Shown here in pieces: positions 4,748 to 64,000 of a DNA stretch of 64,000 bases. The notes under the pieces are model-generated. The model was not told the DNA's origin, searched no databases, and saw nothing but the letters and a program-made list of their open reading frames with translations. This DNA is from Candidatus Babelota bacterium. Lineage in GTDB: Bacteria; Babelota; Babeliae; Babelales; UASB340. Location: contig WJIY01000017.1 of assembly GCA_014730005.1 (NCBI GenBank), positions 8,800-72,799 on the forward strand, in the 5' to 3' direction. The number at the start of each line of letters is the position of its first letter. The first letter of the stretch is position 1. The translations under genes and the position numbers were made by a program.

Positions 4748-4763
4748 AAAAAAACTCCTTTAT

Positions 4764-34184: not shown

Positions 34185-35736
34185 TCTTACGCCAAAATTA
34201 CTAATCAATAATAAAAAAAATCAGATAATATTTTTTTCATTCTTAATTTTTAGCTTAATACTACTTTTTCTTGGAATTCCTTACACTAAATGGTATTTCA
34301 AAACGGATGATTTTGGAAATATTTATCATTGTTTTATTAAAAGTTATAAAGATATTATTAAATTTGTTTATGAAGGAAATATCGAACATGCAAGTCATGC
34401 CTGTAATGATTTGCATGATCAACATTTTTTAGGGGGTCTTTATCGTCCAATGTCATTTATTTATTATTTGCCACAAGTTTTTTTATTTGGAACAAATGCT
34501 TATGGTTATTTTTTAATAACCATAATTTTGCATGCACTAAATTCAGTATTATTATTTTTAATATTTACAAAAATAATCTCTCCTATTTTTTCTTTTCTTT
34601 TTACTATGTATTTTGCCTTTCACCCAACACTAATCTGGTTAGGTTGGATTAGTGCACAAACATATTTTACAGAATTTCTTACTCTAATATTCTTATTGTT
34701 TTTTTTAAAAAAATATCTAGATACAAATCAAATAAAATTCTATTTATTTTCATGTGTACTTTTTCTTATGAACATCTATTTAAAAGAACAAACTATTGTT
34801 CTTCCAATTTGGATTATTTGGGCTACTTATATTTACAAAACATTTAAATTAAATTCACAAAAATCTGTTTTTACAAAATTAAAAGTAAGCTTAATTTTAT
34901 CCTCAGGATATTGGTTAATAATATTTTTCTATCTATTTACAAGAGCTTTGATCTTCCCCATAAGAGTTATAAATACAAATACACCTACATCTCTAACTTT
35001 TGCTTTAAATTTACATTCTTTTCTAAATCGACAAAAAGAACGCTTTTTTGATTTCGTCACTTATATTGCAGATTTTTTAAACTTAAGTTTATTACCTAAA
35101 AATCATCAAATCATCAAGGGAAGTTTAATTATAATATTAATAATATTTCTTTTTATACTTTTCATTAATAGTAAAAACAAAATAATTTCGCTTTTTTTAT
35201 TATTCAGCATATTGTTATTTAGTTGGCCAGCATTATTAATTCATTATCAACCAAGATATATTTATATTTCATTAGCATTTTTTATTTTATTAATTATTTT
35301 CCTTTTAAAATCTCAAAAAAGCACAAACTTATTTGCAAAATACAAAAAAACAATAATGTGTATTCTCTCGCTCACCATTTGCATAAATGCAACCTATTTA
35401 ACAATACAGCTAACAGCAAAAGAAAAACTTCTAAATCATATAAAAATATCCCTTATGAACTTAATTAAAAAAGATGAATTACAAAATGCTATAACAAATA
35501 ATCATGCACTTTGTTTTTATAATCTTCCTTATTATTTCAGGCAAGGAACAGCTCAAGCAACGTGGATGTTAACCAACAAATCAAATTATCCTATTTATGT
35601 TTACCTAACAAAACCACCAATCAGCACTATATATAAATTAGGATATAATCATATTCCAAATCCAAAAACCGTAAATAAAAATATTTTATATATAACATGG
35701 GACTATGATAAATCAGAATTTATATTTGATTATTAA
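34177..35736 (+). CDS. GT-C fold membrane glycosyltransferase, PMT_2/TMTC-like, paralogue 2
   Basis: Motifs GIPYTKWYFKTDDFGN, GGLYRPMSFIYY, FAFHPTL and YLKEQTIVLP are present. The protein ends in TWDYDKSEF. It overlaps paralogue 1 by 8 nt. Confidence 0.6.
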   Translation: MNNLTPKLLINNKKNQIIFFSFLIFSLILLFLGIPYTKWYFKTDDFGNIYHCFIKSYKDIIKFVYEGNIEHASHACNDLHDQHFLGGLYRPMSFIYYLPQVFLFGTNAYGYFLITIILHALNSVLLFLIFTKIISPIFSFLFTMYFAFHPTLIWLGWISAQTYFTEFLTLIFLLFFLKKYLDTNQIKFYLFSCVLFLMNIYLKEQTIVLPIWIIWATYIYKTFKLNSQKSVFTKLKVSLILSSGYWLIIFFYLFTRALIFPIRVINTNTPTSLTFALNLHSFLNRQKERFFDFVTYIADFLNLSLLPKNHQIIKGSLIIILIIFLFILFINSKNKIISLFLLFSILLFSWPALLIHYQPRYIYISLAFFILLIIFLLKSQKSTNLFAKYKKTIMCILSLTICINATYLTIQLTAKEKLLNHIKISLMNLIKKDELQNAITNNHALCFYNLPYYFRQGTAQATWMLTNKSNYPIYVYLTKPPISTIYKLGYNHIPNPKTVNKNILYITWDYDKSEFIFDY

Positions 35737-49506: not shown

Positions 49507-51146
49507 TAAAATTCCTTATCAACAATAACATCTTTGCCTGAAATGATAGCATCACAAATTTTATCCAAATAAATATTTTTGCCTGGTAATAATTTATCTA
49601 ATTTATTCAAATCAATATTATGATTTTTATCCAAAATACCCAAGTTCGCTGGAAGTTGTCGCTCAAAAAAATAAGAGTATACATATTTTCTTGCCAAATC
49701 TATTTGTTCTCTACTTAAAGGCTTTATCGAACTAATATTGCTCAAGATATGGAAATATTCTTCTCTTGTTTTCACATCTATAGAAAAACCTTTATCTGAA
49801 AAATGTGATTCTCCCGCCAAAATGACAGGTTTCCCAAATAACGGTAACTCAATTCCAATTGTGCCCCAAATAGTAATTCCAATATCTATTAAGTTAAAAA
49901 GACTTTGTGTATTTAATGTCAATTTTGAATCTAATATTTTTATATGAGGAGCTATAAAAGAAACTTTCTTCTTGATTTCATCTAAAACACTATAATTACT
50001 TTCTATCCTATATTCAAATGGATGGATTTTAACAAGCCAATTAACATTTTCAATTTTATTCATCCTCTTTATGGATTCAACAACCCATTCATATGAGTCA
50101 TTAAAAATCATTGCTGGAAAATCTATCCCCGCATCCCAATAAACATGAGTAAAAAGACAAGCTATTGGATAATTATTATTAATTTTTAATTTTTTTTTCA
50201 AAGAATTTTTATTCTCATAATCATCAAAAAAACAAGTATCAAAATGAGACTTATCGATATAACGACCAGAAAAAAATTTATCTAATTTATCATCTTCCAC
50301 TCGAGTTAAATCCTTTTCTTTTCTCTTTTTCCACTCAAATTCTGAAATATTTCTAAGGATTAATTTTTTTTCACTCTTAGGAGAATAATAATAATAACAA
50401 TTTGCATAACCGCTACTCCAAAAAAGACTATTTATCTTATGTTTCTTTGCTAAAAATACTGGTGCCGCATAATCCACATAATAACCATGTGATGAATAAA
50501 CTCCAAAAGGTTTCTTTTTTTTAAAAACCTCACTTGCAACATAGGCATTTACCAATGATGCATAAAAATAATTCCTATAAGCTTCATCTTCATAATTATC
50601 ATAATCTGCAGGATATCCTTTTTTATACCTTATAATAGATGACAATGCATATTCTCCAACTGGAATATCTAAATATTTATAATGTTTTATTTCGGAAATA
50701 TTTATAGAATTAGCAATTTTTTCAAATTTTTTAACTAATGATTCATCAAGATAAGAAGATCCAATGGAATAATCTAATTCAAATTTATTCAAACAATTCA
50801 CCATAGAGGTGTAACACAACTTACAATCAGTTTTTTGTTTACCTATCTCATTTTGTATACATGCTTTAGAAAAACCATCACAAATAATAAAATGAGTACG
50901 ATATCCACGCAAATTCAATGCAAAAGACACTGCTAAATTTCTACGCAAAATAGCCTCAAGCCCTCCTAACTCCCATATAATAACAACAGGCGAATCATAT
51001 CTTAATTTTACGTTATTTTTTAAGAATCTCAGAATTGTTGTAACAAATTTTTTATCTCGTTTAACCTTCAAATACCAATCTATGCGGTTCGTAAGATTAT
51101 TGAATTTTCGAAATCCAATTCTTGAAAAATTTTCTAAAAAATTCAT
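49506..51146 (-). CDS. KpsS/KpsC-like (Capsule_synth-type) glycosyltransferase candidate with N-terminal Cys motif, paralogue A
   Basis: Motifs CLFTHVYWDAGI...NWLVKIHPFE...GITIWGTIGIELPLFGKPVILAGESHFSDKGFS are present. The N-terminal part carries IICDGFSKACIQ...TDCKLC. Confidence 0.45.
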   Translation of the reverse strand: MNFLENFSRIGFRKFNNLTNRIDWYLKVKRDKKFVTTILRFLKNNVKLRYDSPVVIIWELGGLEAILRRNLAVSFALNLRGYRTHFIICDGFSKACIQNEIGKQKTDCKLCYTSMVNCLNKFELDYSIGSSYLDESLVKKFEKIANSINISEIKHYKYLDIPVGEYALSSIIRYKKGYPADYDNYEDEAYRNYFYASLVNAYVASEVFKKKKPFGVYSSHGYYVDYAAPVFLAKKHKINSLFWSSGYANCYYYYSPKSEKKLILRNISEFEWKKRKEKDLTRVEDDKLDKFFSGRYIDKSHFDTCFFDDYENKNSLKKKLKINNNYPIACLFTHVYWDAGIDFPAMIFNDSYEWVVESIKRMNKIENVNWLVKIHPFEYRIESNYSVLDEIKKKVSFIAPHIKILDSKLTLNTQSLFNLIDIGITIWGTIGIELPLFGKPVILAGESHFSDKGFSIDVKTREEYFHILSNISSIKPLSREQIDLARKYVYSYFFERQLPANLGILDKNHNIDLNKLDKLLPGKNIYLDKICDAIISGKDVIVDKEF

Positions 51147-51155: not shown

Positions 51156-51911
51156 CTACTTTCTAACTGTAATACCATTCTCACTTAATAATTTCTTTAT
51201 CTCTCTTGGTGTTTGCTCTGTAAAATGAAATATACTTGCAGCAGCAATAGCTTTTGCTCCAACATTCAAAGCGTTTAAAAAATCTTTATAACCCCCTGCC
51301 CCTCCAGAAACAATAACAGGAATTGAGACACTTTCTGTAACAAGTTTTATCAACTCCAAATCATAACCTTGCATAGTACCATCTTTATCAATACTGGTTA
51401 TCAAAATTTCTCCCGCTCCTAACCCCTCAACTCGCTTGCTCCAATCTACAACATTAATTCCCATAGGTTTTGTTCCACTACAGCTATAACATTGATAAGT
51501 ACCATCCTGTTCTTTTTTAGCATCAATGCTTACAACAATACATTGTGCACCAAAAACTTGAGATGCTTCTTTTATAAAATTAGGATTTTTATATACAAAA
51601 GTATTTATACATGCTTTATCTGCACCAGATTTAAGTAAATTTCTAATATCATCAATTGATTTAACTCCACCACCTACAGTTAAAGGAACAAAACATTCAC
51701 AAGAAAAATCTTTAATTAAATCAAAATCGGGAGCACAATTTTCTTTGGTTGCTGCAATATCTACTATAATTAACTCATCCACCTGTCGCATAGTATAAAC
51801 TTTTACTGCAGGCAAAATAGATCCAACCTTACGCCAACTATCAAATTTTACACCTTTAACCAGGTCATTATCTTTATACAGTAAAGTTGGTATTAAGCGA
51901 ACTTTAAGCAC
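51156..51911 (-). CDS. HisF-like cyclase subunit (WbuZ-type, glycan amidotransferase partner)
   Basis: Motifs RLIPTLLYKDNDLVKGVKF, LTVGGGVKSIDD and IPVIVSGGAG are present. The context with the HisH-like and WbuX-like genes points away from histidine biosynthesis. Confidence 0.8.
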   Translation of the reverse strand: MLKVRLIPTLLYKDNDLVKGVKFDSWRKVGSILPAVKVYTMRQVDELIIVDIAATKENCAPDFDLIKDFSCECFVPLTVGGGVKSIDDIRNLLKSGADKACINTFVYKNPNFIKEASQVFGAQCIVVSIDAKKEQDGTYQCYSCSGTKPMGINVVDWSKRVEGLGAGEILITSIDKDGTMQGYDLELIKLVTESVSIPVIVSGGAGGYKDFLNALNVGAKAIAAASIFHFTEQTPREIKKLLSENGITVRK

Positions 51912-51923
51912 CTTACACTCTCT

Positions 51924-52538
51924 TTAAAGATTTAAAAAATTTTTTACCAATTCAAACCCCCATGGCACACTTTTCTCTGGATGAAATTGAACTCCATAAA
52001 TATTTTCACAATTAACAGAAGAAATAATTTGACCACAATAAGGAGTAACAGTTAAAATCCCATTATTGTTTGCAGGAACAAAATGATAACTGTGCACAAA
52101 ATAAAAATCACTTTTATTAGGAATATTTTTAAATAATTCTGACTCTTTTTTGATATGAATTTCATTCCATCCAACGTGTGGAACAGATTCTTTTTCATTT
52201 TGTTTTTCTAATTTTTCAACTCTCCCAGAAATAAAACCTAATCCTTTACAAACCACACCTTCTGTTCCTACATTAGCCAAAAGTTGCATTCCCAAACAAA
52301 TGCCTAATAATGGAATTTTATTTTTCTTAACTTCTATTGCAAGGGGATCAATAAAACCTAATTTTCTCAAATTATTAATTCCGCCCCCAAAAGAACCAAC
52401 ACCCGGTAAAATAATTTTTTCAGCAGAACACAAATCCTTTGGATCATTAGATATAAATACATTAGCACCACATTCTTGCAAGAACCTTGATATAGATCCC
52501 AAATTTCCCATTCCATAATCAATTATTAAAACATTCAT
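51924..52538 (-). CDS. HisH-like glutamine amidotransferase subunit (WbuY-type)
   Basis: Motifs IIDYGMGNLGS, ILPGVGSFG, LGICLGMQLL (catalytic Cys) and GVQFHPEKS are present. Confidence 0.8.
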   Translation of the reverse strand: MNVLIIDYGMGNLGSISRFLQECGANVFISNDPKDLCSAEKIILPGVGSFGGGINNLRKLGFIDPLAIEVKKNKIPLLGICLGMQLLANVGTEGVVCKGLGFISGRVEKLEKQNEKESVPHVGWNEIHIKKESELFKNIPNKSDFYFVHSYHFVPANNNGILTVTPYCGQIISSVNCENIYGVQFHPEKSVPWGFELVKNFLNL

Positions 52539-53746
52539 AAATTATTAATATTCGCAAATTTGCTATCAGCCTTTTGAAAAAACATTTTATCTGTCCCTAT
52601 ATTTTCCGGATTATATAATTTAATTAAATTTCCATTTTTATCTTTAATTAAATTCCCTCTAGTATCAGTTTTAAATATTTTTTTATTCGTAAATTTATCA
52701 CAAATCTCAATAAATTTATCTACTGTTAAATTCAAAGGTTTTAAAATCTCTTCAAGTGGTTTGTTTAAATATGTCCAAGGAAACTTTCCATCTAATTTTT
52801 TTACAATTTCAATCGCATCAATTCTAGATAAACGACCACGTCTTAAATGTAAACAAGCAAGATCAGTAGCTCTACCAAAACCAAATTTTAAATACTTAAA
52901 ATAATCGTGTATACCAGTTTGATAGTTATCAACATTTTCATAATTAACCATCGATCCCTCCACAACACGTGAAAAAGAATTAAAACCAAAAGCTTGAGAA
53001 ATTAAAGCATTCGACAATCCATCCCAAGGGAAATAATATCCTAAAAACAAACCATTTACACCTATGGATTTTAATTGTTCATCTGAAGGGTATGTAAATG
53101 CAATTAAATCCTTTTTCTTAATACCTTCAATTCCTATAAAATCTGAAACTCTTAAACCTAATAAACCACCAAATTCTTCTAACCATCTTCTATCTAAAAG
53201 ATTATTTTGACTTGAGCAAACAGGTCCACCATATTCATTTTGTGAATTTTCACCCCAAATAATTAATGGAATTTTATAATTTACAGCAACTTGTATAGGT
53301 ATTGTAAAAATACCAATGTGTTCAGGCCAAGATATATCTCCAACCTGCATTAATCCAATTCTATTTAACTTTCTTCGTATTATTGGATTTGTGGTAAATT
53401 CTAAATAATCAACGCCTAAGTTTTTAATGTTTTCAATATTTTTTTTTCCAATTTCTGAAAGATGGCAAGTTGTTGACGTAACACATAAAGGATTCATACC
53501 TAATTGCAACATCTTAATTACTTGATAAGTGCTATCCTTCCCACCACTTACAGGCACAATACAATCCCAATTTGTTCCATCTTTAGATCTATACCGTTCT
53601 AAAATTTTTAATAATTCCTCTTTTCTTTCAGCCCAATTAACAACTTTTCTGCTTTCATAATATTCACATGCACTACAAACATCATATTCATTAAATTTTA
53701 AATCTGGCTTAGTATCTGGCATTACACATCTGCAACAGTATTTCAT
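52535..53746 (-). CDS. N-acetyl sugar amidotransferase (WbuX/WbpG/PseA-like PP-loop enzyme)
   Basis: An N-terminal Zn-ribbon (MKYCCRCVMPDTKPDLKFNEYDVCSACEYY) and a PP-loop (VPVSGGKDST) are present. 403 aa. Confidence 0.8.
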   Translation of the reverse strand: MKYCCRCVMPDTKPDLKFNEYDVCSACEYYESRKVVNWAERKEELLKILERYRSKDGTNWDCIVPVSGGKDSTYQVIKMLQLGMNPLCVTSTTCHLSEIGKKNIENIKNLGVDYLEFTTNPIIRRKLNRIGLMQVGDISWPEHIGIFTIPIQVAVNYKIPLIIWGENSQNEYGGPVCSSQNNLLDRRWLEEFGGLLGLRVSDFIGIEGIKKKDLIAFTYPSDEQLKSIGVNGLFLGYYFPWDGLSNALISQAFGFNSFSRVVEGSMVNYENVDNYQTGIHDYFKYLKFGFGRATDLACLHLRRGRLSRIDAIEIVKKLDGKFPWTYLNKPLEEILKPLNLTVDKFIEICDKFTNKKIFKTDTRGNLIKDKNGNLIKLYNPENIGTDKMFFQKADSKFANINNL

Positions 53747-53768
53747 AAAATTCTCCTGAAAGCTTTAA

Positions 53769-54389
53769 CTAAATTTTTTCGAGTAAAAACCAAGTAATAT
53801 CATCTTGAGCAAAATACTTATCGCGATGATAAGTAAAACCATAATCAACCAAAGAAACATCCTTAAATCGATCTAAAATCTCCCCGGCAAAATCACGTTT
53901 AAATAATTTGTTAACATTTCCTCTATAATCTAATACAACGGGTTTTGGATTATAATATTCCACAATACAAATATATTTATTTGAAAGCTTATGCATTAAA
54001 TCATAAGTTTGATTTAATTTTTCTGGATTTATATGAATTAAAACACCTTTAGACAAAACAAAATCATATTTATTTTTTGTAGAAAAATCTATAATAGAAT
54101 TATTATAAACCTCTATTCCTACAAATTGTCTAAGTTTTTGACAAGCATATTTATTTATCTCTATCGCACTTAACTTAATATTTGGAACCAAAGTTTTTAT
54201 GGCTTGCAAATTTAATCCTATATTTGCACCAATTTCCATTACAGAATTAATATTTTGTGTATAATTTAATATTTTAGAAAATAAAGCAATATTACTAGCT
54301 AATATCAAATCTCCTTGATTTCTATTCGTATATTCATCTCCAAATTTATCCGCCCAAAATCTTTCTTGTTCTGTTATAGGTTGCTGCAC
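53769..54389 (-). CDS. pseudaminic-acid-biosynthesis-associated methylase-like class I methyltransferase
   Basis: The N-terminus FWADKFGDEYTNRN and motif I VMEIGANIGLNL are present. It is adjacent to pseF. Confidence 0.6.
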   Translation of the reverse strand: MQQPITEQERFWADKFGDEYTNRNQGDLILASNIALFSKILNYTQNINSVMEIGANIGLNLQAIKTLVPNIKLSAIEINKYACQKLRQFVGIEVYNNSIIDFSTKNKYDFVLSKGVLIHINPEKLNQTYDLMHKLSNKYICIVEYYNPKPVVLDYRGNVNKLFKRDFAGEILDRFKDVSLVDYGFTYHRDKYFAQDDITWFLLEKI

Positions 54390-55096
54390 AATTCACCCTT
54401 TCCCTTATTAACATTTTTTAAAAAATTATACTTAAATTCTGCAATTATCCAATCATCTTCTGTATCTATATCTTGCACCTCATTATTAGGAATAATTAAT
54501 GGAATAGTATAATCTGCAAATATCCTTTTTTGTTCTAAATAACTTTTTGAATTTATCCAATAAAACTGACCCGCATCATGATATGCAGAAACTAAATCTT
54601 GAGATCGAACATTATAATTTTCCGGCCAAAACATCTGCAGCTTGCTATCGTCAATTTTTAAAGCTCTTTGAATTGGATAATTAAATTTAATTACCGAAAC
54701 AAGAGAATCAGCCTTACACTCTTTTAAAATATCAAAACCATCAATAATTCTTTTTTTATTTACAAAAGGAGCTGTTGCAAGAATACAACAAACATAATCA
54801 TATTGTTTCTGTATTTTTTTATAAGAGTCCAAGACCTCCTTGATAACATCTGCTAAAGTTGCAAAATCATTTGAATTTATTTTTGAACGAAAAAAAGGAA
54901 CTTGTGCTCCATATTTTTTTGCAATTTTTGCAATTTCAATATCATCTGTTGAAACCATAATCTCATTAAAGCAACAAGACTCTATTGCAACATCAATGGA
55001 ATATTTAATAATCGGTTGACCACAAAATTCCTTAATGTTTTTTCTAGGAATTCTTTTACTACCTCCTCTTGCAGGAATAATTGCTAAACAATTCAT
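54374..55096 (-). CDS. pseF: pseudaminic acid cytidylyltransferase
   Basis: Motifs MNCLAIIPARGGSKRIPRKNIKEF...VSTDD...RSQDL..YHDAGQFYW...VQDIDTEDDW are present. I use the ATG at 55096. The 24 extra residues of the ORF-track start (55168) precede the conserved N-terminus. Confidence 0.85.
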   Translation of the reverse strand: MNCLAIIPARGGSKRIPRKNIKEFCGQPIIKYSIDVAIESCCFNEIMVSTDDIEIAKIAKKYGAQVPFFRSKINSNDFATLADVIKEVLDSYKKIQKQYDYVCCILATAPFVNKKRIIDGFDILKECKADSLVSVIKFNYPIQRALKIDDSKLQMFWPENYNVRSQDLVSAYHDAGQFYWINSKSYLEQKRIFADYTIPLIIPNNEVQDIDTEDDWIIAEFKYNFLKNVNKGKGELCSNL

Positions 55097-55394
55097 AAAA
55101 TTATCTTTTAAGCTACCCAAGCAAACTATACGAACAGATCTGAAGCATCCTGCATGTTTTTCATGCACTGCTATACAAAAATCTAATCACTCAAGGTAAT
55201 TTATTACTTTTATTTCTTGAATATTTTTTAAAATTCATAGAACCCTTCTATCATTAATTTTTCTACGAATCATAAATAATTTTTACATAAATTCATGTAT
55301 ATCAACGTTCAAAGTAAAAAAACAAAATTAAAATTTTATTTATAATTTTATATTAATTAAAATTTACAAAAAACCTCTCTAAAAACAATAATTT

Positions 55395-56453
55395 TTAATT
55401 CACAATTAGATCCCAATTTACAGCAGTCCCTTTTTTTAAATTACAAGAAACTTTTTTTCCTATTAATTGCTCAAAGTATCTTGGATGTAACCCATAACCG
55501 GGTCTAACTACTCTCAAATTTTCTTTAGTTAAAATATCACCAGACTTTAAATCCTTTGATATATAAATCGAACGACGAAATTGCAAATTGTTTTTTTCTT
55601 TTTCAGAAAATTCATATGAAACCTTACCCAAAGACTGCCAAGCTCTTTTTGTCTCAACAACTAAAGCCTTCATTTCTTCTGGTTCTAATGAAAATTCAGA
55701 ATCAATTCCACCATCAGATCGCGATAAAGTAAAATGTTTTTCAATAAAGGTTGTACCCAAAACAACACTTGCTACCGAAACCCCTATCCCTAATGTATGG
55801 TCTGACAAACCAACCTTGCAACCAAATAATTCTCTCATATGTGGAATGGTTAAAATATTTGCATTTATAGGATCAGCAGGATAAGAGCTAGTACATTTTA
55901 ACAGGATTATATCTTTTGTACCATGGCTTCTTAGCGTTTCTACTGCTTCATGAAGTTCTGAAACTCTAGCTAAACCCGTTGAAATGATTACAGGCTTACC
56001 TGTTACAGCAATTCTTCTCAATAAAGGTAAATGATTATTTTCAAAAGAAGCAATTTTATAACAAGGAACATTTAAAGTTTCCAAAAAATCTACTGAACTC
56101 TCATCAAAAGGAGTGCTAAAACAAATCAACCCTAATTGTTTACAACGTTCAATAATTGGCTTATGCCATTCCCATGGAGTATAAGATTGTTGATAAAGTT
56201 CATAAAGATAAGAACCTTTCCACAAACTTTTAGAATCTTTAACAAAAAAATCATCATTTTTTACATCAAGTGTAATCGTATCAGGGGTATAAGTTTGTAA
56301 TTTTAATGCATTAACTCCAGCTTCTGCAGCAGCTCTAACAATTGCTAAGGCTTTATCTATGGATTGATTATGATTTCCGGACATTTCTGCAACTACAAAA
56401 GGCGGATACTTTCTACCTATCTTTACACCCTCAATTACAATCTCTCTTTCCAT
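55395..56453 (-). CDS. pseI: pseudaminic acid synthase (NeuB family)
   Basis: Motifs PPFVVAEMSGNHNQS, ALKLQTYTPDTITL, LWKGSYLYELYQQSYTPWEW, YKIASFE, GLSDHTLG and the C-terminal SAF-like domain are present. Confidence 0.88.
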   Translation of the reverse strand: MEREIVIEGVKIGRKYPPFVVAEMSGNHNQSIDKALAIVRAAAEAGVNALKLQTYTPDTITLDVKNDDFFVKDSKSLWKGSYLYELYQQSYTPWEWHKPIIERCKQLGLICFSTPFDESSVDFLETLNVPCYKIASFENNHLPLLRRIAVTGKPVIISTGLARVSELHEAVETLRSHGTKDIILLKCTSSYPADPINANILTIPHMRELFGCKVGLSDHTLGIGVSVASVVLGTTFIEKHFTLSRSDGGIDSEFSLEPEEMKALVVETKRAWQSLGKVSYEFSEKEKNNLQFRRSIYISKDLKSGDILTKENLRVVRPGYGLHPRYFEQLIGKKVSCNLKKGTAVNWDLIVN

Positions 56454-56462
56454 ATTTTCTTT

Positions 56463-56939
56463 CTAATTTCTACAATATTCAAATTTAAAAAACTTAATAT
56501 TATTACAAATCTTCTTACCAATAAACTTATATCCGGTTTTATCAAAAACCTTTAAAGATGATTTATTATTTTCCTGAATATATGCATAAATTTTGCTGGC
56601 ACCAAAATCATTTAAAAGCTTACTCGAACAGTCTTGTAATAAAGATACACCCAAACCTTTCCCCCGAAAACTTCTATGTAAACTAATACTTATAATATAA
56701 CTATTTTCTTCTTCAGCAATTTTATCAAACCTTATTTGTCCAACAAATTCTTTTAATTCATTTCTTACAACAAAATAAACACAATCTTTACTTACAATTT
56801 TATTTTCAAACCATGAAACATGATCATCCCAATTAATTTTATCTATATTAAAAGAATTAGCTCTGACATCAAAATCGTTAGATAAATTAAAAACATCTTT
56901 AATATCTGATTTTTTTGCTAATTCAATTGTAAGAGACAT
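56463..56939 (-). CDS. pseH: GNAT N-acetyltransferase, PseH-like
   Basis: 158-aa GNAT (FRGKGLGVSLL). The N-terminus has the ..VRANSFNIDKINWDDHVSWFENK pattern seen in PseH. It lies next to pseI. Confidence 0.65.
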   Translation of the reverse strand: MSLTIELAKKSDIKDVFNLSNDFDVRANSFNIDKINWDDHVSWFENKIVSKDCVYFVVRNELKEFVGQIRFDKIAEEENSYIISISLHRSFRGKGLGVSLLQDCSSKLLNDFGASKIYAYIQENNKSSLKVFDKTGYKFIGKKICNNIKFFKFEYCRN

Positions 56940-57586
56940 CTTTTACCTATCATTTTAGATTTTAAATAAACTTTATTTTTAAACCAAATAGCCAAAAAAT
57001 AGATAATTGTTGTGCCTGATGCAAATACTAATCTTTCAATTGCAACAATGGGAATTAATTTCAACCACTGTATAGCATTCATTTCACTTGTATAAAGCCA
57101 AATAATACTTCCAAAAGCATGTGCTAAAAATGTAGAAGTTAAAGATGCATTAAAAATAAAATTATAATAACTTTTTGGCTCAAAAAAATATAACAAAATT
57201 GGAATAAGCCAATAAAAAGAATAAATATATGCAATTTTACCTACAGGATGCAAAATAAAACTTAATATAAATAAAACAGGCAATATTACTCTGATTGAGA
57301 AATTTAAAAATCTTAATAGGTAATTTTTATTTTTAGACCTCATTATTAAAAAAAAAGTTAATGTAGAAAAAAAAGTTGGTAAACCAAATGTGATAACTTG
57401 TGAAAAAACAAAATTTTTAATTAATAAAAAAAAAGCAAAAGGTAACCCAATTAAAGGCATAATAAAATTAATACTAAAGAAAAAAAACTTAGTTGAACAA
57501 AAAACACAACTTGTTTTTAAATAAAATAAAAAAATAAAAATTAAAACAAAAAATATTCTCAATATTTTATTTTCATCCATTAACAT
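56918..57586 (-). CDS. small polytopic membrane protein of unknown function embedded in the pse operon
   Basis: 222 aa with about 6 hydrophobic segments. It overlaps the pseH start by 22 nt. No motif recognised. Confidence 0.5.
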   Translation of the reverse strand: MLMDENKILRIFFVLIFIFLFYLKTSCVFCSTKFFFFSINFIMPLIGLPFAFFLLIKNFVFSQVITFGLPTFFSTLTFFLIMRSKNKNYLLRFLNFSIRVILPVLFILSFILHPVGKIAYIYSFYWLIPILLYFFEPKSYYNFIFNASLTSTFLAHAFGSIIWLYTSEMNAIQWLKLIPIVAIERLVFASGTTIIYFLAIWFKNKVYLKSKMIGKRCLLQLN

Positions 57587-57613
57587 CTTAACCTTTATTA
57601 AATAAAACCAAAC

Positions 57614-58609
57614 TTAACTCAAAACATTCTGTGCCACCACCCATAAATGTGAAGAAAGATTATTTAATGCAATAAAATCCTGAAAATTTTTACTTATAGA
57701 ATGCCACTTATCTACTAATAAATATTTCATAAACGGAATATTTGAAACATCAAATTCTTCAGATAAGATTTTTTTTCTAACAATTTCAGCATCTAATTTC
57801 CCAGGAGTCAAAGTTTCTAAAACTTTAAATCCACATCCACGCAATAAATTTTCAATAGATTCAATATTAAAATAATTTAAATGCTCAGGAGCAAAAATAT
57901 TATCTGAATTATGTCCCAATATATTTAAATCAAATCCCTTTATATTAGGTGTCGTTATAATTAATAAACCTTTATCCTTTAATACCTTTTTGCAGCTTAA
58001 TATAAATTCTCTCGGATTATAAAGATGCTCAATTACTTCAAAACTTGTCACTACACTTACATTTTTTAAATCAACATCTTCTATAGGAGCCTCAATAACA
58101 TCTAAACCTCTATTGCGACACGTATCTGCAAGACTTTTTGCTGGTTCTACAAGTAAGATTTTTTTAAAAAAATTACATTTTTTAAGTACTGTTGCAAAAG
58201 TACCAAATCCTGCACCAACATCAATCAAAAATTCATTATCAATAAAATATTTAGAACACAAAGAAATAACTTTATCAGCCCGCGGTTCAAAAATTTCTTT
58301 TTTTCGTTTTTCCTCGGACAACTTAAAAACATGTGTATTCCAATATTTACATGCTTTGGATTTTTTATAAAAATCTACTATTAAATCAAAGTTAGGCCTA
58401 GGATTTACAAATAAAGTTTCACAAAAATTACATTCAACAAAACTATATCCCTCCTTATTAAACTTAAAACTATAACTAGTATTATCACAAGCAGGACAAT
58501 TGACAAAAACAAATTTTGTTTTATTTTTTAACATATTTTTAGAATCAATTTCGCGCAAAATCTTACATTTGTACATCAATTCATCTGGTCTTATACTATT
58601 CTCATTCAT
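57614..58609 (-). CDS. class I SAM methyltransferase with N-terminal Cys4 zinc-ribbon
   Basis: The zinc ribbon reads CPACDN...ECNFCETLFVNP. Motif I reads LIDVGAGFGTFATVL. Confidence 0.75.
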   Translation of the reverse strand: MNENSIRPDELMYKCKILREIDSKNMLKNKTKFVFVNCPACDNTSYSFKFNKEGYSFVECNFCETLFVNPRPNFDLIVDFYKKSKACKYWNTHVFKLSEEKRKKEIFEPRADKVISLCSKYFIDNEFLIDVGAGFGTFATVLKKCNFFKKILLVEPAKSLADTCRNRGLDVIEAPIEDVDLKNVSVVTSFEVIEHLYNPREFILSCKKVLKDKGLLIITTPNIKGFDLNILGHNSDNIFAPEHLNYFNIESIENLLRGCGFKVLETLTPGKLDAEIVRKKILSEEFDVSNIPFMKYLLVDKWHSISKNFQDFIALNNLSSHLWVVAQNVLS

Positions 58610-59393
58610 AACTATACTTCCTATTTAGATAATATTTTAAAAAAAATACATCATCCTCAAAATCCTCAAGACTTTTTTCAAAACATTTTTCTGTTTCAAC
58701 AGACATACAAAAATCCTTCGGCAATATAGAAAATATTTTTTTAAAATCAAAATCCCCTTTTCCTAAGTGCTTATGTTCATCATAAATACCATTCCAATCA
58801 CCATCACTAATATGAAAAATTTCAGGATTAATTTGCAAAAACCTTTTAATACACTTAATTTTATTCATTTTTTTTGCATTTGAAAAATAAATAGCATGCC
58901 CAATATCCAAACAAAAACCAACGTTTGTATTTTTTGTAATAAATTCAATCTCCTCTGGAGAACTTCCATTACAAATCACGTTATTATATATTCCATAATA
59001 AGGTTTATTTTCTATTATAATTCTTGAATCATAAATCATATTTAATTGTTTAACAGTTTCTTCTATTTCACCATTAATTCCGGGGTGAAAAATTATAATA
59101 TTAGCATGCAATTCATCCGCAAAACGTTTAGCTTCATTTGTCAATTTCATATTTTGCTTACAAAAATTTTTTTTAGCCAAATTAAGTCCAACAGCAGAAT
59201 GAGCAGCATGTATTACATATGGAATTTTAAGTTTCTTCCATAATTTAATATAACCTTCAAAAGAACCTGGAACTGCAAACAATTCTATATAATCGTAAAT
59301 TTGTTCACCAAAAAGCCGTTTTGCTTCTTTGATATAATTTAAATTTGTAGACCAGAGTTTTAAACCAATTTTATACATAAAATTATTTAACAA
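58602..59393 (-). CDS. xylose-isomerase-like TIM-barrel protein (sugar phosphate isomerase/epimerase family)
   Basis: Motifs YDYIELFAVPGS, NIIIFHPG, IIIENKP and CLDIGHAIY are typical of the AP_endonuc_2 / sugar isomerase fold. Confidence 0.6.
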   Translation of the reverse strand: MLNNFMYKIGLKLWSTNLNYIKEAKRLFGEQIYDYIELFAVPGSFEGYIKLWKKLKIPYVIHAAHSAVGLNLAKKNFCKQNMKLTNEAKRFADELHANIIIFHPGINGEIEETVKQLNMIYDSRIIIENKPYYGIYNNVICNGSSPEEIEFITKNTNVGFCLDIGHAIYFSNAKKMNKIKCIKRFLQINPEIFHISDGDWNGIYDEHKHLGKGDFDFKKIFSILPKDFCMSVETEKCFEKSLEDFEDDVFFLKYYLNRKYSYE

Positions 59394-60543
59394 CCCGTTT
59401 AATAATTTTCACTATCTTCTTTATATCATTATTTTTCAATTTAACGTATATAGGTAAAGAAATTGTTCTTTTGTAAAAATTTTCAGAAACAGAAAAATCA
59501 CCTTTTTTAAATCCCATACTTTGATAATAAGGTTGCAAATGAACTGGGATATAATGAACTTGTAAATTCAATCCATTCTTTTTTAATTCTTCAAACAATT
59601 CTTTTTTATTTGTTTTTAAATTTTCAAAATTTATAAGCAAAGGACATAAATGCCAAGCCGCTCGAGAATAATCTTTTTCTTCAAGAAAATTAAATCGATT
59701 ATCATCATAAAATTCTCGCCTATAAGTTTCAACAATTTCTCGCCGCCTTTTTATAAATTTATCCAGTTGCTTTAATTGTGAAATACCAAGAGCACATTGC
59801 ATATCAGAAATTCTATAGTTAAAACCTAAATGATGTTGTTCATAATACCAAGATCCATCATAATCATTTTTAAATTTTTTAAAATCTTTTGTAATTCCAT
59901 GAGTTCTTAACATCAATATTTTTTCGTACAATTCCTTATTATTTGTTGTAATTGCTCCACCTTCTCCAGTAGTTATATTTTTTACTGGATGAAAAGAAAA
60001 GATAGTTAAATCAGAAAATTTACAATTACCTACTTTTATTTTCTTATATTCAGACCCCAAAGCTTGCGCAGCATCTTCAATAACAAATAAATTATTATTT
60101 GTTGCTATTTCATATATTTTCTGCATATCACAAGATTGCCCCGCAAAATGAACTGGAATAATCCCTTTTGTTTTGGAGGTAATTTTTTTTTCAATTTCAA
60201 CAGGATCAATATTTGCCGTTGTTGGTTCTATATCTGCAAATTGTACTTTACCCCCTGCATATAAAATAGAATTTGATGATGCAACAAAAGTATTCGGTGT
60301 GGTTATAAATTCATCCCCATTTTTAATATTCAAACTTAACATTGAAAGATGTAATGCCGCAGCTCCATTTGCAACAGCAACACAATATTTGGCATTTGTA
60401 TAATCACAGATAGCTTTCTCAAATTCCTTAACTTTTGGTCCCTGAGTTAACCAATTAGATCGTAAAACTTTAACAACTTCCCAAATATCTCTTAAAGAAA
60501 TTGATTGGCTCCCATAGTTATAAATCTTTGACTTATAAAACAT
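59383..60543 (-). CDS. pseC: UDP-4-amino-4,6-dideoxy-N-acetyl-beta-L-altrosamine transaminase
   Basis: Motifs YGSQSISLRDIWEVVKVLRSNWLTQGPKVKEFE, FSFHPVKNITTGEGG, LRTHGIT, WYYEQHHLGFNYRISDMQCALGISQL are present. Confidence 0.85.
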   Translation of the reverse strand: MFYKSKIYNYGSQSISLRDIWEVVKVLRSNWLTQGPKVKEFEKAICDYTNAKYCVAVANGAAALHLSMLSLNIKNGDEFITTPNTFVASSNSILYAGGKVQFADIEPTTANIDPVEIEKKITSKTKGIIPVHFAGQSCDMQKIYEIATNNNLFVIEDAAQALGSEYKKIKVGNCKFSDLTIFSFHPVKNITTGEGGAITTNNKELYEKILMLRTHGITKDFKKFKNDYDGSWYYEQHHLGFNYRISDMQCALGISQLKQLDKFIKRRREIVETYRREFYDDNRFNFLEEKDYSRAAWHLCPLLINFENLKTNKKELFEELKKNGLNLQVHYIPVHLQPYYQSMGFKKGDFSVSENFYKRTISLPIYVKLKNNDIKKIVKIIKRVVK

Positions 60544-60546
60544 AAT

Positions 60547-61377
60547 TCATCCAATTCGCATTTTTAAAATATTCTTAGCTCTATAAAGCTCATTGCAATC
60601 TAATAACTTAATAGAAAACTTTAATTCATCATCTAAAGTTTGAAATTCTTTTTTTTGAAAAACATTTTCATTTAGTTTTTTGATCCATGGTTTATAATCC
60701 ATAAGATGAATTACATCAATCAATTTAAAAAAATTATTTGAATCATATAAAAAATCAAAAATTGCACAAAAAAACAAGTAATCTGCTCTTGTATCCAAAG
60801 TTAATCGCAGATTTTTACGTAATTTTTTAGGAGCCTCTTTTATGCAAATATTAAACATATTTTTATTTTTATAAATAAATGATGTAACATGTTCTCGGTC
60901 AAAAAAATTTGTAGTATTTAAAAAAGTTTTTTTTAATGATCCAAAAGAAAAAATTTCTATATTTGTTCCAATAGGATAATATTCTGTTTTTGTACAATCG
61001 TTTTTATCTTGCAAGTGTTTGTCTAATACATTGCTAATTAATTCAAAATCTATACAAGGATTATCACCAGTAAGTCTTAAAATTGTTTCTAAATTATATT
61101 GTTTTGCAGAATAATAATATCTAGATAAAACATCATTTACATCACCACGAAAACAATTAATTTCTTTTTTTTTACACCATTGTTCTATAATATCATCATT
61201 TTTATCCCAAGAAGTGGCAACTATAACTTCATTTAATTTCTTTATGCATTTTGCACGTTGAACAATATTATCAAGAACAGTTACTTCAGAATTATAAGGT
61301 AAAGATAATAAAACTTTTCCTGGCAATCTCTTGGATTTCATTCTAGCTTGAATAATTGCACCTGTTCTACCATTCAT
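60547..61377 (-). CDS. SpsF-like cytidylyltransferase-family protein (second nucleotidyltransferase of the cluster)
   Basis: The N-terminus GAIIQARMKSKRLPGKVL and RLTGDNPCID are present. 276 aa. Confidence 0.65.
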   Translation of the reverse strand: MNGRTGAIIQARMKSKRLPGKVLLSLPYNSEVTVLDNIVQRAKCIKKLNEVIVATSWDKNDDIIEQWCKKKEINCFRGDVNDVLSRYYYSAKQYNLETILRLTGDNPCIDFELISNVLDKHLQDKNDCTKTEYYPIGTNIEIFSFGSLKKTFLNTTNFFDREHVTSFIYKNKNMFNICIKEAPKKLRKNLRLTLDTRADYLFFCAIFDFLYDSNNFFKLIDVIHLMDYKPWIKKLNENVFQKKEFQTLDDELKFSIKLLDCNELYRAKNILKMRIG

Positions 61378-61380
61378 ATT

Positions 61381-62172
61381 TCACCAAACAGTAAGTCCTC
61401 CGTCTATAATTATGTTTTGCCCTGTTACATATGAAGATAAGTCTGACGATAAAAATAAGATCGCACCAATCAAATCTTCTGGAACGCCTATTCTATTCAT
61501 TGGAATTTTTTCACACAAATTATTAATAAAACCTTTTTCTTGTTGCACTATAGGTGACGGAAAAGCTCCAGGAGAAATAGCATTAACATTAATATTATTA
61601 TTTGCTAAATAAACTGCAAAATATTTAGTTAATTGAATTATACCGGCCTTTGCAGCACCATAAGTTGCCGCGCTGAAAAATTTCTCATAACCTTTATATA
61701 TTCGAAAATCTGGGGATACAAGACCATACATAGATGCAATATTTATAATATGTCCTTTATTAAACCTTTTCATAAAAGGAATTATTTCTCTAGTACATCT
61801 AAACACACTTCCCAAAACCCCATCTATACTATATTGCCAATCCTCATCATTTATATTTGAAGGATCAGAGCACTTTGCATAAAAAGCATTATTTATTAAA
61901 ACATCAATTGTCCCAAAATTTTCACAAATTTTTTGAAAGCCATTACAAATAGATTTAGTAGAAGAAATATCAAACTGCTGAAAAGAAATGCTATTTTTTT
62001 TAAATTTTCCTATTTTATCTATATATTCTTCCTCATCATTACACGCAATAATTACATATGCTCCGACGTCAGCCAAACTCAATGACATAATATGTCCTAA
62101 ATGGCCCGCTCCTCCAGTCACAATAATTACTTTATTCTTAAGATCAAACTTAGAAGTTAAATTCATCAACAT
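61381..62172 (-). CDS. short-chain dehydrogenase/reductase (SDR)
   Basis: Motifs VIIVTGGAGHLGH, NNAF and the catalytic Y-x3-K (YGAAKAG) are present. Confidence 0.85.
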   Translation of the reverse strand: MLMNLTSKFDLKNKVIIVTGGAGHLGHIMSLSLADVGAYVIIACNDEEEYIDKIGKFKKNSISFQQFDISSTKSICNGFQKICENFGTIDVLINNAFYAKCSDPSNINDEDWQYSIDGVLGSVFRCTREIIPFMKRFNKGHIINIASMYGLVSPDFRIYKGYEKFFSAATYGAAKAGIIQLTKYFAVYLANNNINVNAISPGAFPSPIVQQEKGFINNLCEKIPMNRIGVPEDLIGAILFLSSDLSSYVTGQNIIIDGGLTVW

Positions 62173-62173
62173 A

Positions 62174-63031
62174 TCACCAATTAATAGGAATAATTATATT
62201 GTTATCATCTTCTTTAAAATATAAAAGATTATTCTCAATTTTTTTGATTTCATTTATTTGTTTTAAATTAAATAAATCTTGTTTAAAATGATCTAAATTA
62301 TCAAAACCAATTACCACTTTGTCTATATAATCATTAAGAACGGCAAAATTAAGACATATCGAAGAAATAGACAGATTCAATTCCTCAGCTAATTTATTTA
62401 AAGCCTTCAGTTTACATTTAAATTTTGAAAATTTAGGTTCTAAATTTTCAAAAGATTTAAAAACAAGTCCCTGCAAAAAAACAGATCGCACAAAAATTTC
62501 TATGCCCTTAGACTTTAAAATACGAAAATACTTTGCAAATCGTTGATCAAAAATACTATATGGAACTTGAATTATATCAAATTCAATTCCCGAATCTAAT
62601 AAATAATCTAACTCTTCTTCAAAATATAACGAAAAACCTATTTTTGATACCAATAAATCATTTTTTATTTTTAAAAACTTTGTCCATAACAATGGATTCT
62701 TTATAAAGAATTTAAAATCATGTACAAGATAACCATAAAGTTGCTTTGAATTTAATCTATGTAAAGATTCAATAAATGATTTTTCAAAATTATCTATTGA
62801 ACAACAAGAAAACTTAGAAATAATTTTAAAATTTATTTTATTTTTTTTTATAAAGCTACCAAGCACTTGCTCACTATCTCCGTATACATAAGCAGTATCT
62901 ATATAATCAATTTTACGATCATATGCATATCTTAAAATTTGATGTGAAATATTTTCTGCAATCTTACCACTTAAATTATTAATGCCATAATCTAATCCAA
63001 ATTGAGCTGTTCCTAATGCAATTTTATTCAT
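62174..63031 (-). CDS. aldo/keto reductase family oxidoreductase
   Basis: The N-terminus IALGTAQFGLDYGI and YIDTAYVYGDSEQVLG are present. Confidence 0.75.
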   Translation of the reverse strand: MNKIALGTAQFGLDYGINNLSGKIAENISHQILRYAYDRKIDYIDTAYVYGDSEQVLGSFIKKNKINFKIISKFSCCSIDNFEKSFIESLHRLNSKQLYGYLVHDFKFFIKNPLLWTKFLKIKNDLLVSKIGFSLYFEEELDYLLDSGIEFDIIQVPYSIFDQRFAKYFRILKSKGIEIFVRSVFLQGLVFKSFENLEPKFSKFKCKLKALNKLAEELNLSISSICLNFAVLNDYIDKVVIGFDNLDHFKQDLFNLKQINEIKKIENNLLYFKEDDNNIIIPINW

Positions 63032-63037
63032 AATATT

Positions 63038-64000
63038 TCAAATTTCATTTATTAATGCCTTCATCTGCTCAATTGTTAACCACTCATTGTTATTCCCACT
63101 ATGATATTCGAAACTATCATCAACTATTCGTCCATTTTTATAAAACTTATCCAAATAATCTAAATCAAAAGAAGGTTTGACAACATAATATTTGTCAAAT
63201 TCCAATGTATTTCTAGCATCTTCCTGTGTGATCATAACCTCATGAATTTTTTCACCAGGACGAACACCAACCGAATTAAGTTTGATATCTGGGGCAACAG
63301 CTTGAGCTAAATCAATAATTTTCATAGATGGAATTTTTTTCACAAATAATTCTCCACCTTGCATAATTTCAAGAGCCATTAAAACCATATCGACTGCGTC
63401 TTCAAGTTTGAGCCAAAATCTCGTCATCCTCAAATCTGTAATAGGCAATTCACTAATACCAGAATTAATTAGATTTTTAAAATATGGAATAACAGAACCC
63501 CGACTTCCAGCAACATTTCCATATCTAACAACTGAAAAACGAGTCTTTCCAGAACCTGCATAAACATTACCAGCAACAAATAATTTATCTGAACATAATT
63601 TTGTCGCACCATAAAGATTAACCGGTGCACATGCCTTATCGGTACTTAAAGCAATAACTTTTTCTACTCTTCTATCAATTGCAGCATCAATTATGTTTTG
63701 AGCACCCATGATATTAGTTTTGATTGCTTCAAACGGATTATATTCACATGAAGGAACCTGTTTGAGAGCCGCAGCATGAATAACAATATCAATATCTTCA
63801 AATGCCCTATATAATCTATCTTTATCTCTTACGTCACCAATGAAAAATCGCAATTTTTTTCTATCTTTAAATTGAGGTTTATTTGACATTTCAAATTGCT
63901 TAAACTCATCTCGTGAAAAAACAATAATTTTTTCTATATTTGGAAATTTATTTAATATAATTTCTATGAATTTATTACCAAAAGATCCGGTTCCTCCCGT
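63038..64000 (-). CDS. pseB: UDP-N-acetylglucosamine 4,6-dehydratase (inverting), 5' end beyond window
   Basis: The ORF track starts at the internal Met (63889). The frame stays open to nt 64000 and reads TGGTGSFGNKFIEIILNKFPNIEKIIVFSRDEFKQFEM..., a Rossmann motif. Later motifs are GDVRD, IHAAALKQVP, STDKA, YGATKL, VRYGNVAGSRGSVIP, MTRFW and RPGEKIHE. Confidence 0.9.
   Translation of the reverse strand, partial: TGGTGSFGNKFIEIILNKFPNIEKIIVFSRDEFKQFEMSNKPQFKDRKKLRFFIGDVRDKDRLYRAFEDIDIVIHAAALKQVPSCEYNPFEAIKTNIMGAQNIIDAAIDRRVEKVIALSTDKACAPVNLYGATKLCSDKLFVAGNVYAGSGKTRFSVVRYGNVAGSRGSVIPYFKNLINSGISELPITDLRMTRFWLKLEDAVDMVLMALEIMQGGELFVKKIPSMKIIDLAQAVAPDIKLNSVGVRPGEKIHEVMITQEDARNTLEFDKYYVVKPSFDLDYLDKFYKNGRIVDDSFEYHSGNNNEWLTIEQMKALINEI

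Follow-up and report, generated by a model that had tools for sequence, protein, structure and literature searches.

A TIM-barrel metalloenzyme as the probable replacement of PseG in a pseudaminic acid operon of a Candidatus Babelota bacterium

Introduction

Pseudaminic acid (Pse) synthesis is treated as a fixed six-enzyme pathway, and annotation, the calling of "Pse-positive" genomes and inhibitor programmes use PseG, which acts in its fourth step, as a marker or target. How can the pathway be completed in an operon where the other Pse enzymes are encoded and PseG is not recognizable? This question is raised by a 64-kb stretch of DNA (hereafter the window) from a 115,303-nt contig of a Candidatus Babelota bacterium (contig WJIY01000017.1, positions 8,800 to 72,799). 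The window has a G+C content of about 27% and stops inside pseB. Three of its proteins, an SpsF-like cytidylyltransferase, an aldo/keto reductase and a TIM barrel, match NCBI proteins of a Candidatus Dependentiae bacterium with 100% identity. In a sequence-only reading of this DNA the genes pseB, pseC, pseH, pseI and pseF had been identified, PseG had been reported as missing, and six non-canonical genes had been described as standing in its place. A second activated sugar, a modified route to the diacetamido-trideoxyhexose intermediate and side-chain tailoring of the nonulosonate had been offered as possible explanations.

On the basis of sequence comparisons we propose that PseG has been displaced non-orthologously by an endonuclease-IV-like TIM-barrel hydrolase encoded at 58602-59378 on the minus strand (TIM in the following), and we consider this reading probable. 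We also put forward a wider proposal: that the TIM family is an unrecognised class of nucleotide-sugar hydrolases cleaving the P-O bond, that an aldo/keto reductase (AKR), a short-chain dehydrogenase/reductase (SDR) and an SpsF-like cytidylyltransferase form a branch leading to an epimeric cytidine monophosphate (CMP)-nonulosonate, and that the operon makes two activated nonulosonates. About this wider proposal our judgement is evenly divided.

The operon and its missing step

On the minus strand, where all genes of the cluster are located, ten ORFs (open reading frames) extend from pseB (63038-64000) to pseI (55395-56453). They are separated by spacers of only -22 to +27 nt, therefore they can be considered as one tightly packed operon, and all ten are intact and translationally coupled. 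The gene calls and coordinates of the sequence-only reading proved to be correct in an ORF check and in Pfam/NCBIfam scans. PseB, PseC, PseI and PseF were assigned as equivalogs by comparing their NCBIfam scores with the curated cut-offs. The inverting UDP-GlcNAc 4,6-dehydratase PseB, the N-terminus of which is cut by the window end, scored 510.8 bits with TIGR03589 (cut-off 407.75), and the aminotransferase PseC (59383-60543) reached 501.9 bits with TIGR03588 (cut-off 423.5). The corresponding values were 493.7 bits with TIGR03586 for the pseudaminic acid synthase PseI (cut-off 340.25) and 304.9 bits with TIGR03584 for the canonical CMP-pseudaminic acid synthetase PseF (54374-55096; cut-off 205.7). 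The GNAT N-acetyltransferase encoded at 56463-56939 is of PseH type: PseH (TIGR03585) was its best family with 50.7 bits, below the cut-off of 93.1. It shares 28-47% identity with the GNAT domains of PseG and TIM fusion proteins, and the PseG-fused domains are also sub-threshold for PseH. PseB, PseC, the PseH-type GNAT, PseI and PseF would thus perform five of the six canonical steps. Nothing was found in favour of the earlier suggestion that the diacetamido-trideoxyhexose is made by a modified route, PseB and PseC being ordinary equivalogs.

The sixth enzyme was searched for in several ways. A hidden Markov model (HMM) was built from 54 PseG sequences of related loci. When three of these representatives were scanned, TIGR03590 was the best family in all cases; two of them were above the cut-off and one, a PseG-PseH fusion, reached 130.3 versus 153.55 bits. 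In the six-frame translations of the 64-kb window the PseG HMM detected nothing, the best match having an E-value of 0.038 and 6.8 bits. Comparison with the PseG alignment by hhalign gave a probability of at most 2.4% for every window ORF of at least 150 aa except the GNAT, and the GNAT match is an artefact because some rows of the alignment are PseG-PseH fusions; the positive control, a divergent PseG, gave 98.8%. Neither Glyco_tran_28 nor the NeuC-type Epimerase_2 was detected when 40 ORFs of the window were scanned with Pfam and 20 of these also with NCBIfam. The reported absence of PseG from the window was therefore confirmed by HMM, hhalign and Pfam/NCBIfam alike, and a cryptic PseG among the unannotated ORFs was ruled out by the HMM and hhalign results.

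TIM occupies the position of PseG

The ORF at 58602-59378, with an alternative start at TTG 59393, encodes a predicted metalloenzyme of 258 aa which belongs to the AP-endonuclease-2 superfamily (PF01261, AP_endonuc_2, 50.4 bits versus 31.1). Two sets of related loci were examined in order to compare its distribution with that of PseG. The first, 80 loci spread over many phyla of bacteria and archaea, was obtained by scanning species-representative genomes with an alignment of SpsF-like proteins; the second contained 80 further loci from a metagenome scan anchored on the TIM family. Each locus spans at most about 20 kb, and the loci are phylogenetically related and chosen by one anchor or the other.

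PseG was present in 62 of the 160 loci and the TIM family in 83, and they were never found together. Among the loci holding PseI and either PseB or PseC, 34 had PseG only, 31 had TIM only and one had neither. Divided by anchor, the SpsF-anchored operons of this kind comprised 34 with PseG only, two with TIM only and one with neither, while all 29 TIM-anchored ones had TIM only (Fisher p ~1e-15, a value which includes no correction for relatedness). The PseG HMM found no match in any of the 80 TIM-anchored loci. In three SpsF-anchored loci (L017, L053 and L071), which have no PseG, a TIM homologue of 49-55% identity is located directly downstream of SpsF, that is, in the usual slot of PseG. The view that six genes stand in place of PseG had to be narrowed accordingly: it is only the TIM barrel which holds the PseG slot and is mutually exclusive with PseG in the 160 loci, whereas the AKR and the SDR co-occur with PseG.

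Core Pse genes were found in 39 of the 54 TIM-anchored loci of at least 8 kb, and in 29 of the 80 TIM loci the gene is directly upstream of, or fused to, an N-acyltransferase or PseI. Two loci contain compact six-gene sets, PseB-PseC-TIM-GNAT-PseI-PseF in L101 and PseB-PseC-TIM-formyltransferase-PseI-PseF in L124. The nearest relatives (L161 of the Babeliales, L085 and L090) have the same block of TIM and a Zn-ribbon methyltransferase, in some cases also the membrane protein described below, and no GT28 gene. The family is represented by 379 cluster representatives at E <=1e-30, in Dependentiae/Babeliales, Elusimicrobia, Synergistia, Vulcanimicrobiota and others, and the TIM of the window falls in a clade whose loci of at least 8 kb all carry Pse genes. 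A plasmid collection searched with the TIM protein gave no match.

Additional evidence is provided by gene fusions. PseH is a frequent fusion partner of PseG and a cytidylyltransferase an occasional one (L047), and TIM has comparable partners. PF01261 and GNAT domains occur together in 11 of the 120 top TIM homologues, and about 41 of the 150 top representatives (clusters of 50% identity) are 394-430 aa long with TIM at the N-terminus. In all five proteins of this length that were scanned the C-terminal part is a GNAT whose PseH score (33.8-45.1 bits) stays under the cut-off of 93.1; PseH was the top-scoring family in four of them, and in P0344 RimI was slightly higher. The GNAT domains fused to TIM and those fused to PseG belong to the same family (34-41% identity, E 1e-25 to 1e-33), as does the free-standing GNAT of the window compared with those fused to TIM. 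The reverse order, PseH-TIM, was found in P0375 and P0379 (417 and 402 aa; PseH 81 bits in P0375). Further fusions are a cytidylyltransferase-TIM protein (P0387, 516 aa), a TIM-formyltransferase protein (P0286, 484 aa) and a DUF559-TIM protein (P0292, 405 aa). PseG and TIM are therefore alike in their operon slot between the cytidylyltransferase or PseC and PseH or PseI, in their fusions to PseH and cytidylyltransferase, and in the net reaction which we propose. They have, on the other hand, no relationship in sequence or fold: TIM is a (beta/alpha)8 barrel with a predicted multi-metal site of endonuclease IV type. Liu and Tanner are said to have described PseG in 2006 as a metal-independent enzyme of GT-B (GT28-like) fold which cleaves the C1-O bond with inversion.

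Metal ligands and proposed chemistry of TIM

The AlphaFold model of TIM (mean predicted local distance difference test, pLDDT, 95.9) has alternating strands and helices in a (beta/alpha)8 fold. In a profile search of the PDB the uncharacterised protein MJ1311 came first, followed by endonuclease IV chains, and sugar isomerases appeared only at E 0.17. Foldseek similarly ranked MJ1311, TTHB071 and endonuclease IV ahead of the ketose 3-epimerases. Our search for functional literature on MJ1311 found none. TIM resembles endonuclease IV (Nfo; PF01261, TIGR00587) in its barrel, with TM-scores of 0.70-0.74, and in the ligand motifs HxP, HPG, EN, CxDxxH, HxxD, DxH and ET. It differs from it in sequence (16-19% identity), in length (258 aa, versus 285 aa in endonuclease IV) and in genetic context, which is sugar biosynthesis instead of DNA repair. 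Its best score with the curated deoxyribonuclease IV models was 17.2 bits, the cut-off being 244.

Glu32, His57, His60, His98, Glu123, Asp158, His161, His189, Asp200, His202 and Glu228 are invariant in 40 members of the TIM family. In an hhalign alignment with E. coli Nfo, His98, Glu123, Asp158, His161, His189, Asp200 and His202 pair with His109, Glu145, Asp179, His182, His216, Asp229 and His231, respectively, which we take to be metal ligands of Nfo. The first His motif of TIM could be aligned with S. aureus endonuclease IV by HMMER. The nine-residue, three-metal set of endonuclease IV appears in TIM as His57/His60, His98, Glu123, Asp158, His161, His189, Asp200, His202 and Glu228, all invariant. 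As judged from these alignments, the conserved residues are those of a three-metal phosphodiesterase and not of the four-ligand, single-metal site of an epimerase, and the retention of the endonuclease IV ligands suggests phosphoester hydrolysis.

In the endonuclease IV reaction the sugar hydroxyl is the leaving group and the phosphate stays on the other side. A precedent for such chemistry on a small molecule is CbiR, a metal-dependent member of the AP endonuclease 2 superfamily which hydrolyses the sugar-O-phosphate bond of a small nucleotide-like cobamide substrate, and which was found because the canonical CbiZ was absent (PMC7733943). CbiR belongs to another clade than TIM, has another substrate and is oxygen-sensitive; TIM scored 15.6 bits with the CbiR model NF041277, whose cut-off is 105. 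Since TIM has the ligand set of endonuclease IV and CbiR provides the precedent, TIM is probably a hydrolase acting between the sugar O1 and the beta-phosphate. Its substrate would be UDP-2,4-diacetamido-2,4,6-trideoxy-beta-L-altropyranose, and at step 4 TIM, instead of the GT-B enzyme PseG, would free 2,4-diacetamido-2,4,6-trideoxy-L-altrose from uridine diphosphate (UDP). A metal-activated water could attack the beta-phosphate, with the sugar O1 leaving, and UDP and the free hexose would result, the latter being condensed with phosphoenolpyruvate by PseI. The net reaction would be that of PseG, achieved by P-O rather than C-O cleavage.

Alternative explanations

Several points weigh against displacement of PseG by TIM. 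The search for PseG covers 64 kb of the 115,303-nt contig, which continues upstream of pseB, and since the compared loci span at most about 20 kb, a locus scored as lacking PseG lacks it in the neighbourhood of the operon, not genome-wide. These 160 loci are also related to each other and were picked by anchoring on SpsF or TIM. The ketose 3-epimerases share the fold and four of the ligands of TIM, and a conserved metal site fixes neither the substrate nor the bond which is cut. The TIM family is not exclusively linked to Pse, because 15 of the 54 TIM loci of at least 8 kb have no Pse genes. A separate subclade (43-50% identity) stands in housekeeping contexts such as CTP synthase-GlmS-TIM and nucleoside hydrolase-BacA-FtsK-TIM (L108 6564-10783, L139, L142, L144, L145, L146 and L160), and may have another function than the Pse-linked clade. 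Finally, one locus of the Thermodesulfovibrionales (L019, 4501-16508) has a full Pse operon (PseB, PseC, SpsF, GNAT and PseI) from which PseG and TIM are both absent; between its SpsF and PseI come a HAD hydrolase and an SDR~ATP-grasp fusion. Step 4 can therefore be encoded elsewhere or solved otherwise, and L019 represents either a third solution or a case where pseG is at another site.

Some of these points would agree with a normal pseG situated upstream of pseB or unlinked, TIM being then a tailoring enzyme that, for instance, epimerises or isomerises the hexose or the nonulosonate. The window stops inside pseB on a contig of 115 kb, the fold is common to ketose 3-epimerases and inosose isomerases, L019 manages with neither protein in its operon, and the Pse genes of Caulobacter are scattered over the genome (PMC7591256). 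We nevertheless consider this explanation rather unlikely. PseG and TIM occur together in none of the 160 loci while PseG is within the operon in 34 of the 37 full SpsF-anchored ones, TIM has the fusion partners of PseG (PseH, the cytidylyltransferase and the formyltransferase of the preceding step), its extra His and Asp ligands are those of endonuclease IV and not of the one-metal epimerases, and the six-gene operons L101 and L124 are complete only if TIM performs step 4. The more specific idea of an inositol-type or ketose epimerase, derived from the neighbouring AKR and Gfo/Idh/MocA genes in L161, is unlikely since the minimal Pse operons L101, L103 and L124 do not have those genes and since TIM has the additional endonuclease IV ligands. 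TIM could also cut a different bond of the UDP-sugar, giving uridine monophosphate (UMP) and a sugar-1-phosphate, or dephosphorylate an intermediate of this kind, and share step 4 with another hydrolase. Three-metal phosphoesterases can indeed be mono- or diesterases, and HAD or PIG-L-type hydrolases are present in the related loci L019, L161, L099 and L017. This is quite improbable in our view, given that no additional hydrolase was seen either in the minimal operons L101 and L124 or, by Pfam/NCBIfam, in the operon of the window, and that CbiR and endonuclease IV keep the phosphate on the non-leaving side while the sugar hydroxyl leaves.

Dependentiae are symbionts with reduced genomes, and the pathway might simply be incomplete in a host-dependent bacterium, through decay or salvage from the host, with TIM as an unrelated endonuclease-IV-like repair or housekeeping enzyme. 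The subclade found next to CTP synthase, GlmS, BacA and FtsK would fit this picture, as would the label "deoxyribonuclease IV" which some database sources give to family members. We attach hardly any credence to it: the ten genes of the operon are all intact and show translational coupling, the TIM of the window is in the clade with Pse genes at all loci of at least 8 kb, the score with the endonuclease IV model is far under the cut-off (17 versus 244 bits), and the same arrangement has been kept across many phyla.

Displacement of PseG by TIM, which we prefer, would be a clean case of non-orthologous gene displacement with Rosetta-stone fusion support, and it is directly testable. The operon is a known kind of Pse cluster; the SpsF and AKR/SDR parts have been documented before, though uncharacterised, and what is new is the analogous enzyme of step 4. 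NCBIfam (June 2026) has no model for the TIM clade, its members carry the database names "TIM barrel protein", "sugar phosphate isomerase/epimerase" and "deoxyribonuclease IV", and a full-text literature search returned no paper tying the family to pseudaminic acid or PseG. If the proposal is true, many genomes scored as Pse-incomplete actually have a complete pathway. The AP-endonuclease-2 superfamily would gain a catalytic function for which CbiR is the sole comparable small-molecule precedent. Furthermore, a metal-dependent, probably P-O-cleaving UDP-sugar hydrolase could be used in chemoenzymatic Pse synthesis.

The SpsF-like cytidylyltransferase and the AKR and SDR genes

The gene at 60547-61377 encodes a cytidylyltransferase of SpsF/FlmC type (CTP_transf_3, PF02348, 111.4 bits). 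It had been regarded as an odd second transferase, and this view did not hold: in many phyla, PseB-PseC-SpsF-PseG(-PseH)-PseI operons have this cytidylyltransferase as their standard one. Its homologues (37-48% identity) are found in PseB-PseC-SpsF-PseG-PseI operons without canonical PseF. In the 80 SpsF loci this order is recurrent, PseG is often joined to PseH in one protein of about 490 aa, and canonical PseF is almost never present. The protein of the window is also a homologue of Caulobacter FlmC (29% identity over 232 aa, E 1e-30, with FlmC translated from the published synthetic flmC). When the Pse pathway was reconstituted in E. coli, FlmC served as the sixth enzyme, and it was described in that work as having no homology to PseF (PMC7591256). 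The closest solved structure, 6oew, was deposited as "cytidylyltransferase". Because of the homology to FlmC and the position in PseG-type operons, the protein can be assigned to a known type of CMP-Pse synthetase, and judging from sequence it is likely a CMP-nonulosonate synthetase. It agrees with the FlmC/SpsF type, as represented by Caulobacter FlmC and B. subtilis SpsF, in its PseB-PseC-SpsF-PseG-PseI context, and it is distinct from it in standing beside a canonical PseF and inside an AKR-SDR module.

Between pseB and this gene lie the AKR (62174-63031; PF00248, 101 bits), with the motifs of the D-Y-K-H catalytic tetrad, and the SDR (61381-62172; adh_short_C2, 151.9 bits), which is of the classical type with TGxxxGxG and YxxxK motifs. 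Homologues of the AKR have a cytidylyltransferase as neighbour in 19 of the TIM-anchored loci and in 10 of the SpsF-anchored ones. Such a neighbour, of one type or the other, is almost always there, and the pair is accompanied by an SDR, a Gfo/Idh/MocA oxidoreductase (L161) or a class-III aminotransferase. As to the neighbourhood conservation of an AKR-SDR-SpsF-TIM set, about which the sequence-only reading had asked, the order AKR-SDR-SpsF does recur, with the AKR and the SDR between PseC and SpsF, in seven loci (L001, L002, L008, L010, L011, L017 and L058), but most of these carry PseG and not TIM. Both reductases were found alongside PseG in L001, L002, L008, L011 and L058; this rules out either of them as a PseG substitute and indicates that they are accessory. 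A related module of AKR, SpsF and aminotransferase is present in L064, L087, L091, L100, L106, L121, L128 and L147. In L162 (483-3931) a GNAT~AKR fusion (471 aa) precedes a fusion of CTP_transf_3 and class-III aminotransferase (676 aa), which implies that one pathway links acetylation, reduction, transamination and cytidylylation.

A similar trio has been described in Vibrio sp. B9-25K2, where a Pse (nab) cluster contains an AKR~SpsF fusion and, after it, a dehydrogenase (PMC7371886). The nonulosonate of this strain has the mass of Pse5Ac7Ac and differs from it in chromatography and fragmentation, so the authors suggested an epimer (PMC7371886). The window and the Vibrio cluster share the AKR, dehydrogenase and SpsF-type cytidylyltransferase after PseC; in Vibrio, however, the AKR and the cytidylyltransferase are fused, PseG is present and the cluster has no canonical PseF (NeuA homologue) (PMC7371886), whereas in the window the two genes are separate, TIM stands instead of PseG, and PseF is present too. 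Since a cluster with the same module makes an apparent Pse epimer, a tailoring role of AKR-SDR-SpsF is likely. Side-chain tailoring of the nonulosonate thus turned out to be the best supported of the three explanations offered earlier for these genes. The likeliest reading, held with modest confidence, is that the AKR and the SDR perform redox tailoring of Pse or CMP-Pse tied to SpsF-type activation. The module would most likely make and activate a redox-tailored Pse, probably an epimer. It counts against this reading that the role of the two reductases leans on one observation at the level of mass spectrometry in a distant organism.

Directly upstream of TIM in three other loci (L096 7485-9992, L119 7519-10008 and L120 5945-8434) there are proteins of about 830 aa, in which an unannotated N-terminal part of about 580 aa is fused to an SpsF-type cytidylyltransferase.

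Other genes of the operon and its surroundings

Two more genes of the operon have no counterpart in the six-enzyme scheme. The first (57614-58609) encodes a class I S-adenosylmethionine-dependent methyltransferase with a Zn-ribbon (Methyltransf_23, 64 bits; a weak S27e zinc-ribbon match; N-terminal CxxC...CxxC). Its homologues recur in both types of Pse loci, with PseG and with TIM, for example in L085 (49% identity), L096, L103 and L161, where the gene comes directly after TIM, and from its sequence a tailoring enzyme is probable. The second (56918-57586) encodes a small polytopic membrane protein of 222 aa with hydrophobic segments; it has no Pfam or NCBIfam match, and syntenic homologues were found only in close relatives (L161, 43%; L081, 51%; L099, 44%). 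Both are conserved accessory genes of the lineage.

The intergenic region between pseI and pseF (55097-55394) is AT-rich and is the only sizeable non-coding stretch of the cluster. The gap of about 300 nt noted before pseF was confirmed as 298 nt when pseF starts at ATG 55096 (MNCLAIIPARGG), and it would be 226 nt with GTG 55168. The mechanical ORF reaches this GTG, and the TIGR03584 match begins at residue 28 of the ORF, ATG 55096 being the likely start. A promoter/terminator scan of the gap found no terminator and no promoter-like matches above chance, and Rfam gave no family match in the gap or in the whole window. The gap possibly contains an internal promoter.

Downstream of pseF are a Pse-associated methylase (53769-54389; TIGR03587, 277 bits), a WbuX/PseA-like amidotransferase (52535-53746; TIGR03573, 338 bits), a HisH-like subunit (51924-52538; TIGR01855, 224 bits) and a WbuZ/HisF-like subunit (51156-51911; TIGR03572, 298.3 bits, just under the cut-off of 299.7), all on the minus strand. 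By their family assignments these four genes (51156-54389) would constitute an acetamidino/methyl tailoring set, and PseF with the amidotransferase and the methylase would serve the standard or the acetamidino form of Pse. They are followed on the same strand by the genes of two large proteins (47752-51146; 546 and 584 aa), the longer one with a Capsule_synth match (PF05159, 27 bits). Homologues of this pair are located near PseI, usually downstream, in L004, L024, L053, L064, L084, L091, L095 and L136, and in L161 a Capsule_synth protein comes after NeuB and a methyltransferase. The two proteins may be regarded as candidate Pse transferases.

Variation of the Pse product is suggested by other loci of the comparison. 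In L150 (4259-9336) the gene order is TIM-KAS III (FabH-like)-SDR-x-PseI-PseF, which suggests a Pse variant whose 3-hydroxyacyl N-substituent is made within the operon. L161 (11764-14575) has, inside its Pse cluster, a formyltransferase-like gene and a divergent folate-enzyme gene with domains of 5-formyltetrahydrofolate (5-FTHF) cyclo-ligase and tetrahydrofolate (THF) dehydrogenase-cyclohydrolase, and this hints at an N-formyl Pse variant. Genes of these two L161 types were not found in the window.

Between about 31 and 46 kb the window contains glycosyltransferases of the GT2, GT4 and GT-C types, a second DegT aminotransferase, methyltransferases and an ABC exporter, therefore the operon seems to feed a large surface-glycan locus. 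The CMP-pseudaminic acid or acids made by the operon would be destined for this locus, which spans roughly 31-64 kb. Dependentiae live as intracellular symbionts in protists, and a literature search gave no report of Pse on their surface. The glycan locus also includes, on its other strand (32448-37468, plus), three consecutive large ORFs (578, 519 and 587 aa) with no Pfam match. About 25 kb away from the glycan locus, at 2356-5978 on the minus strand, there are type IV pilus or type II secretion genes, which encode a PilC/T2SS-F protein and a pilin-like protein whose N-terminus bears a methylation motif. As pilins are glycosylated in other bacteria, the pilin-like protein is a possible acceptor of the Pse glycan.

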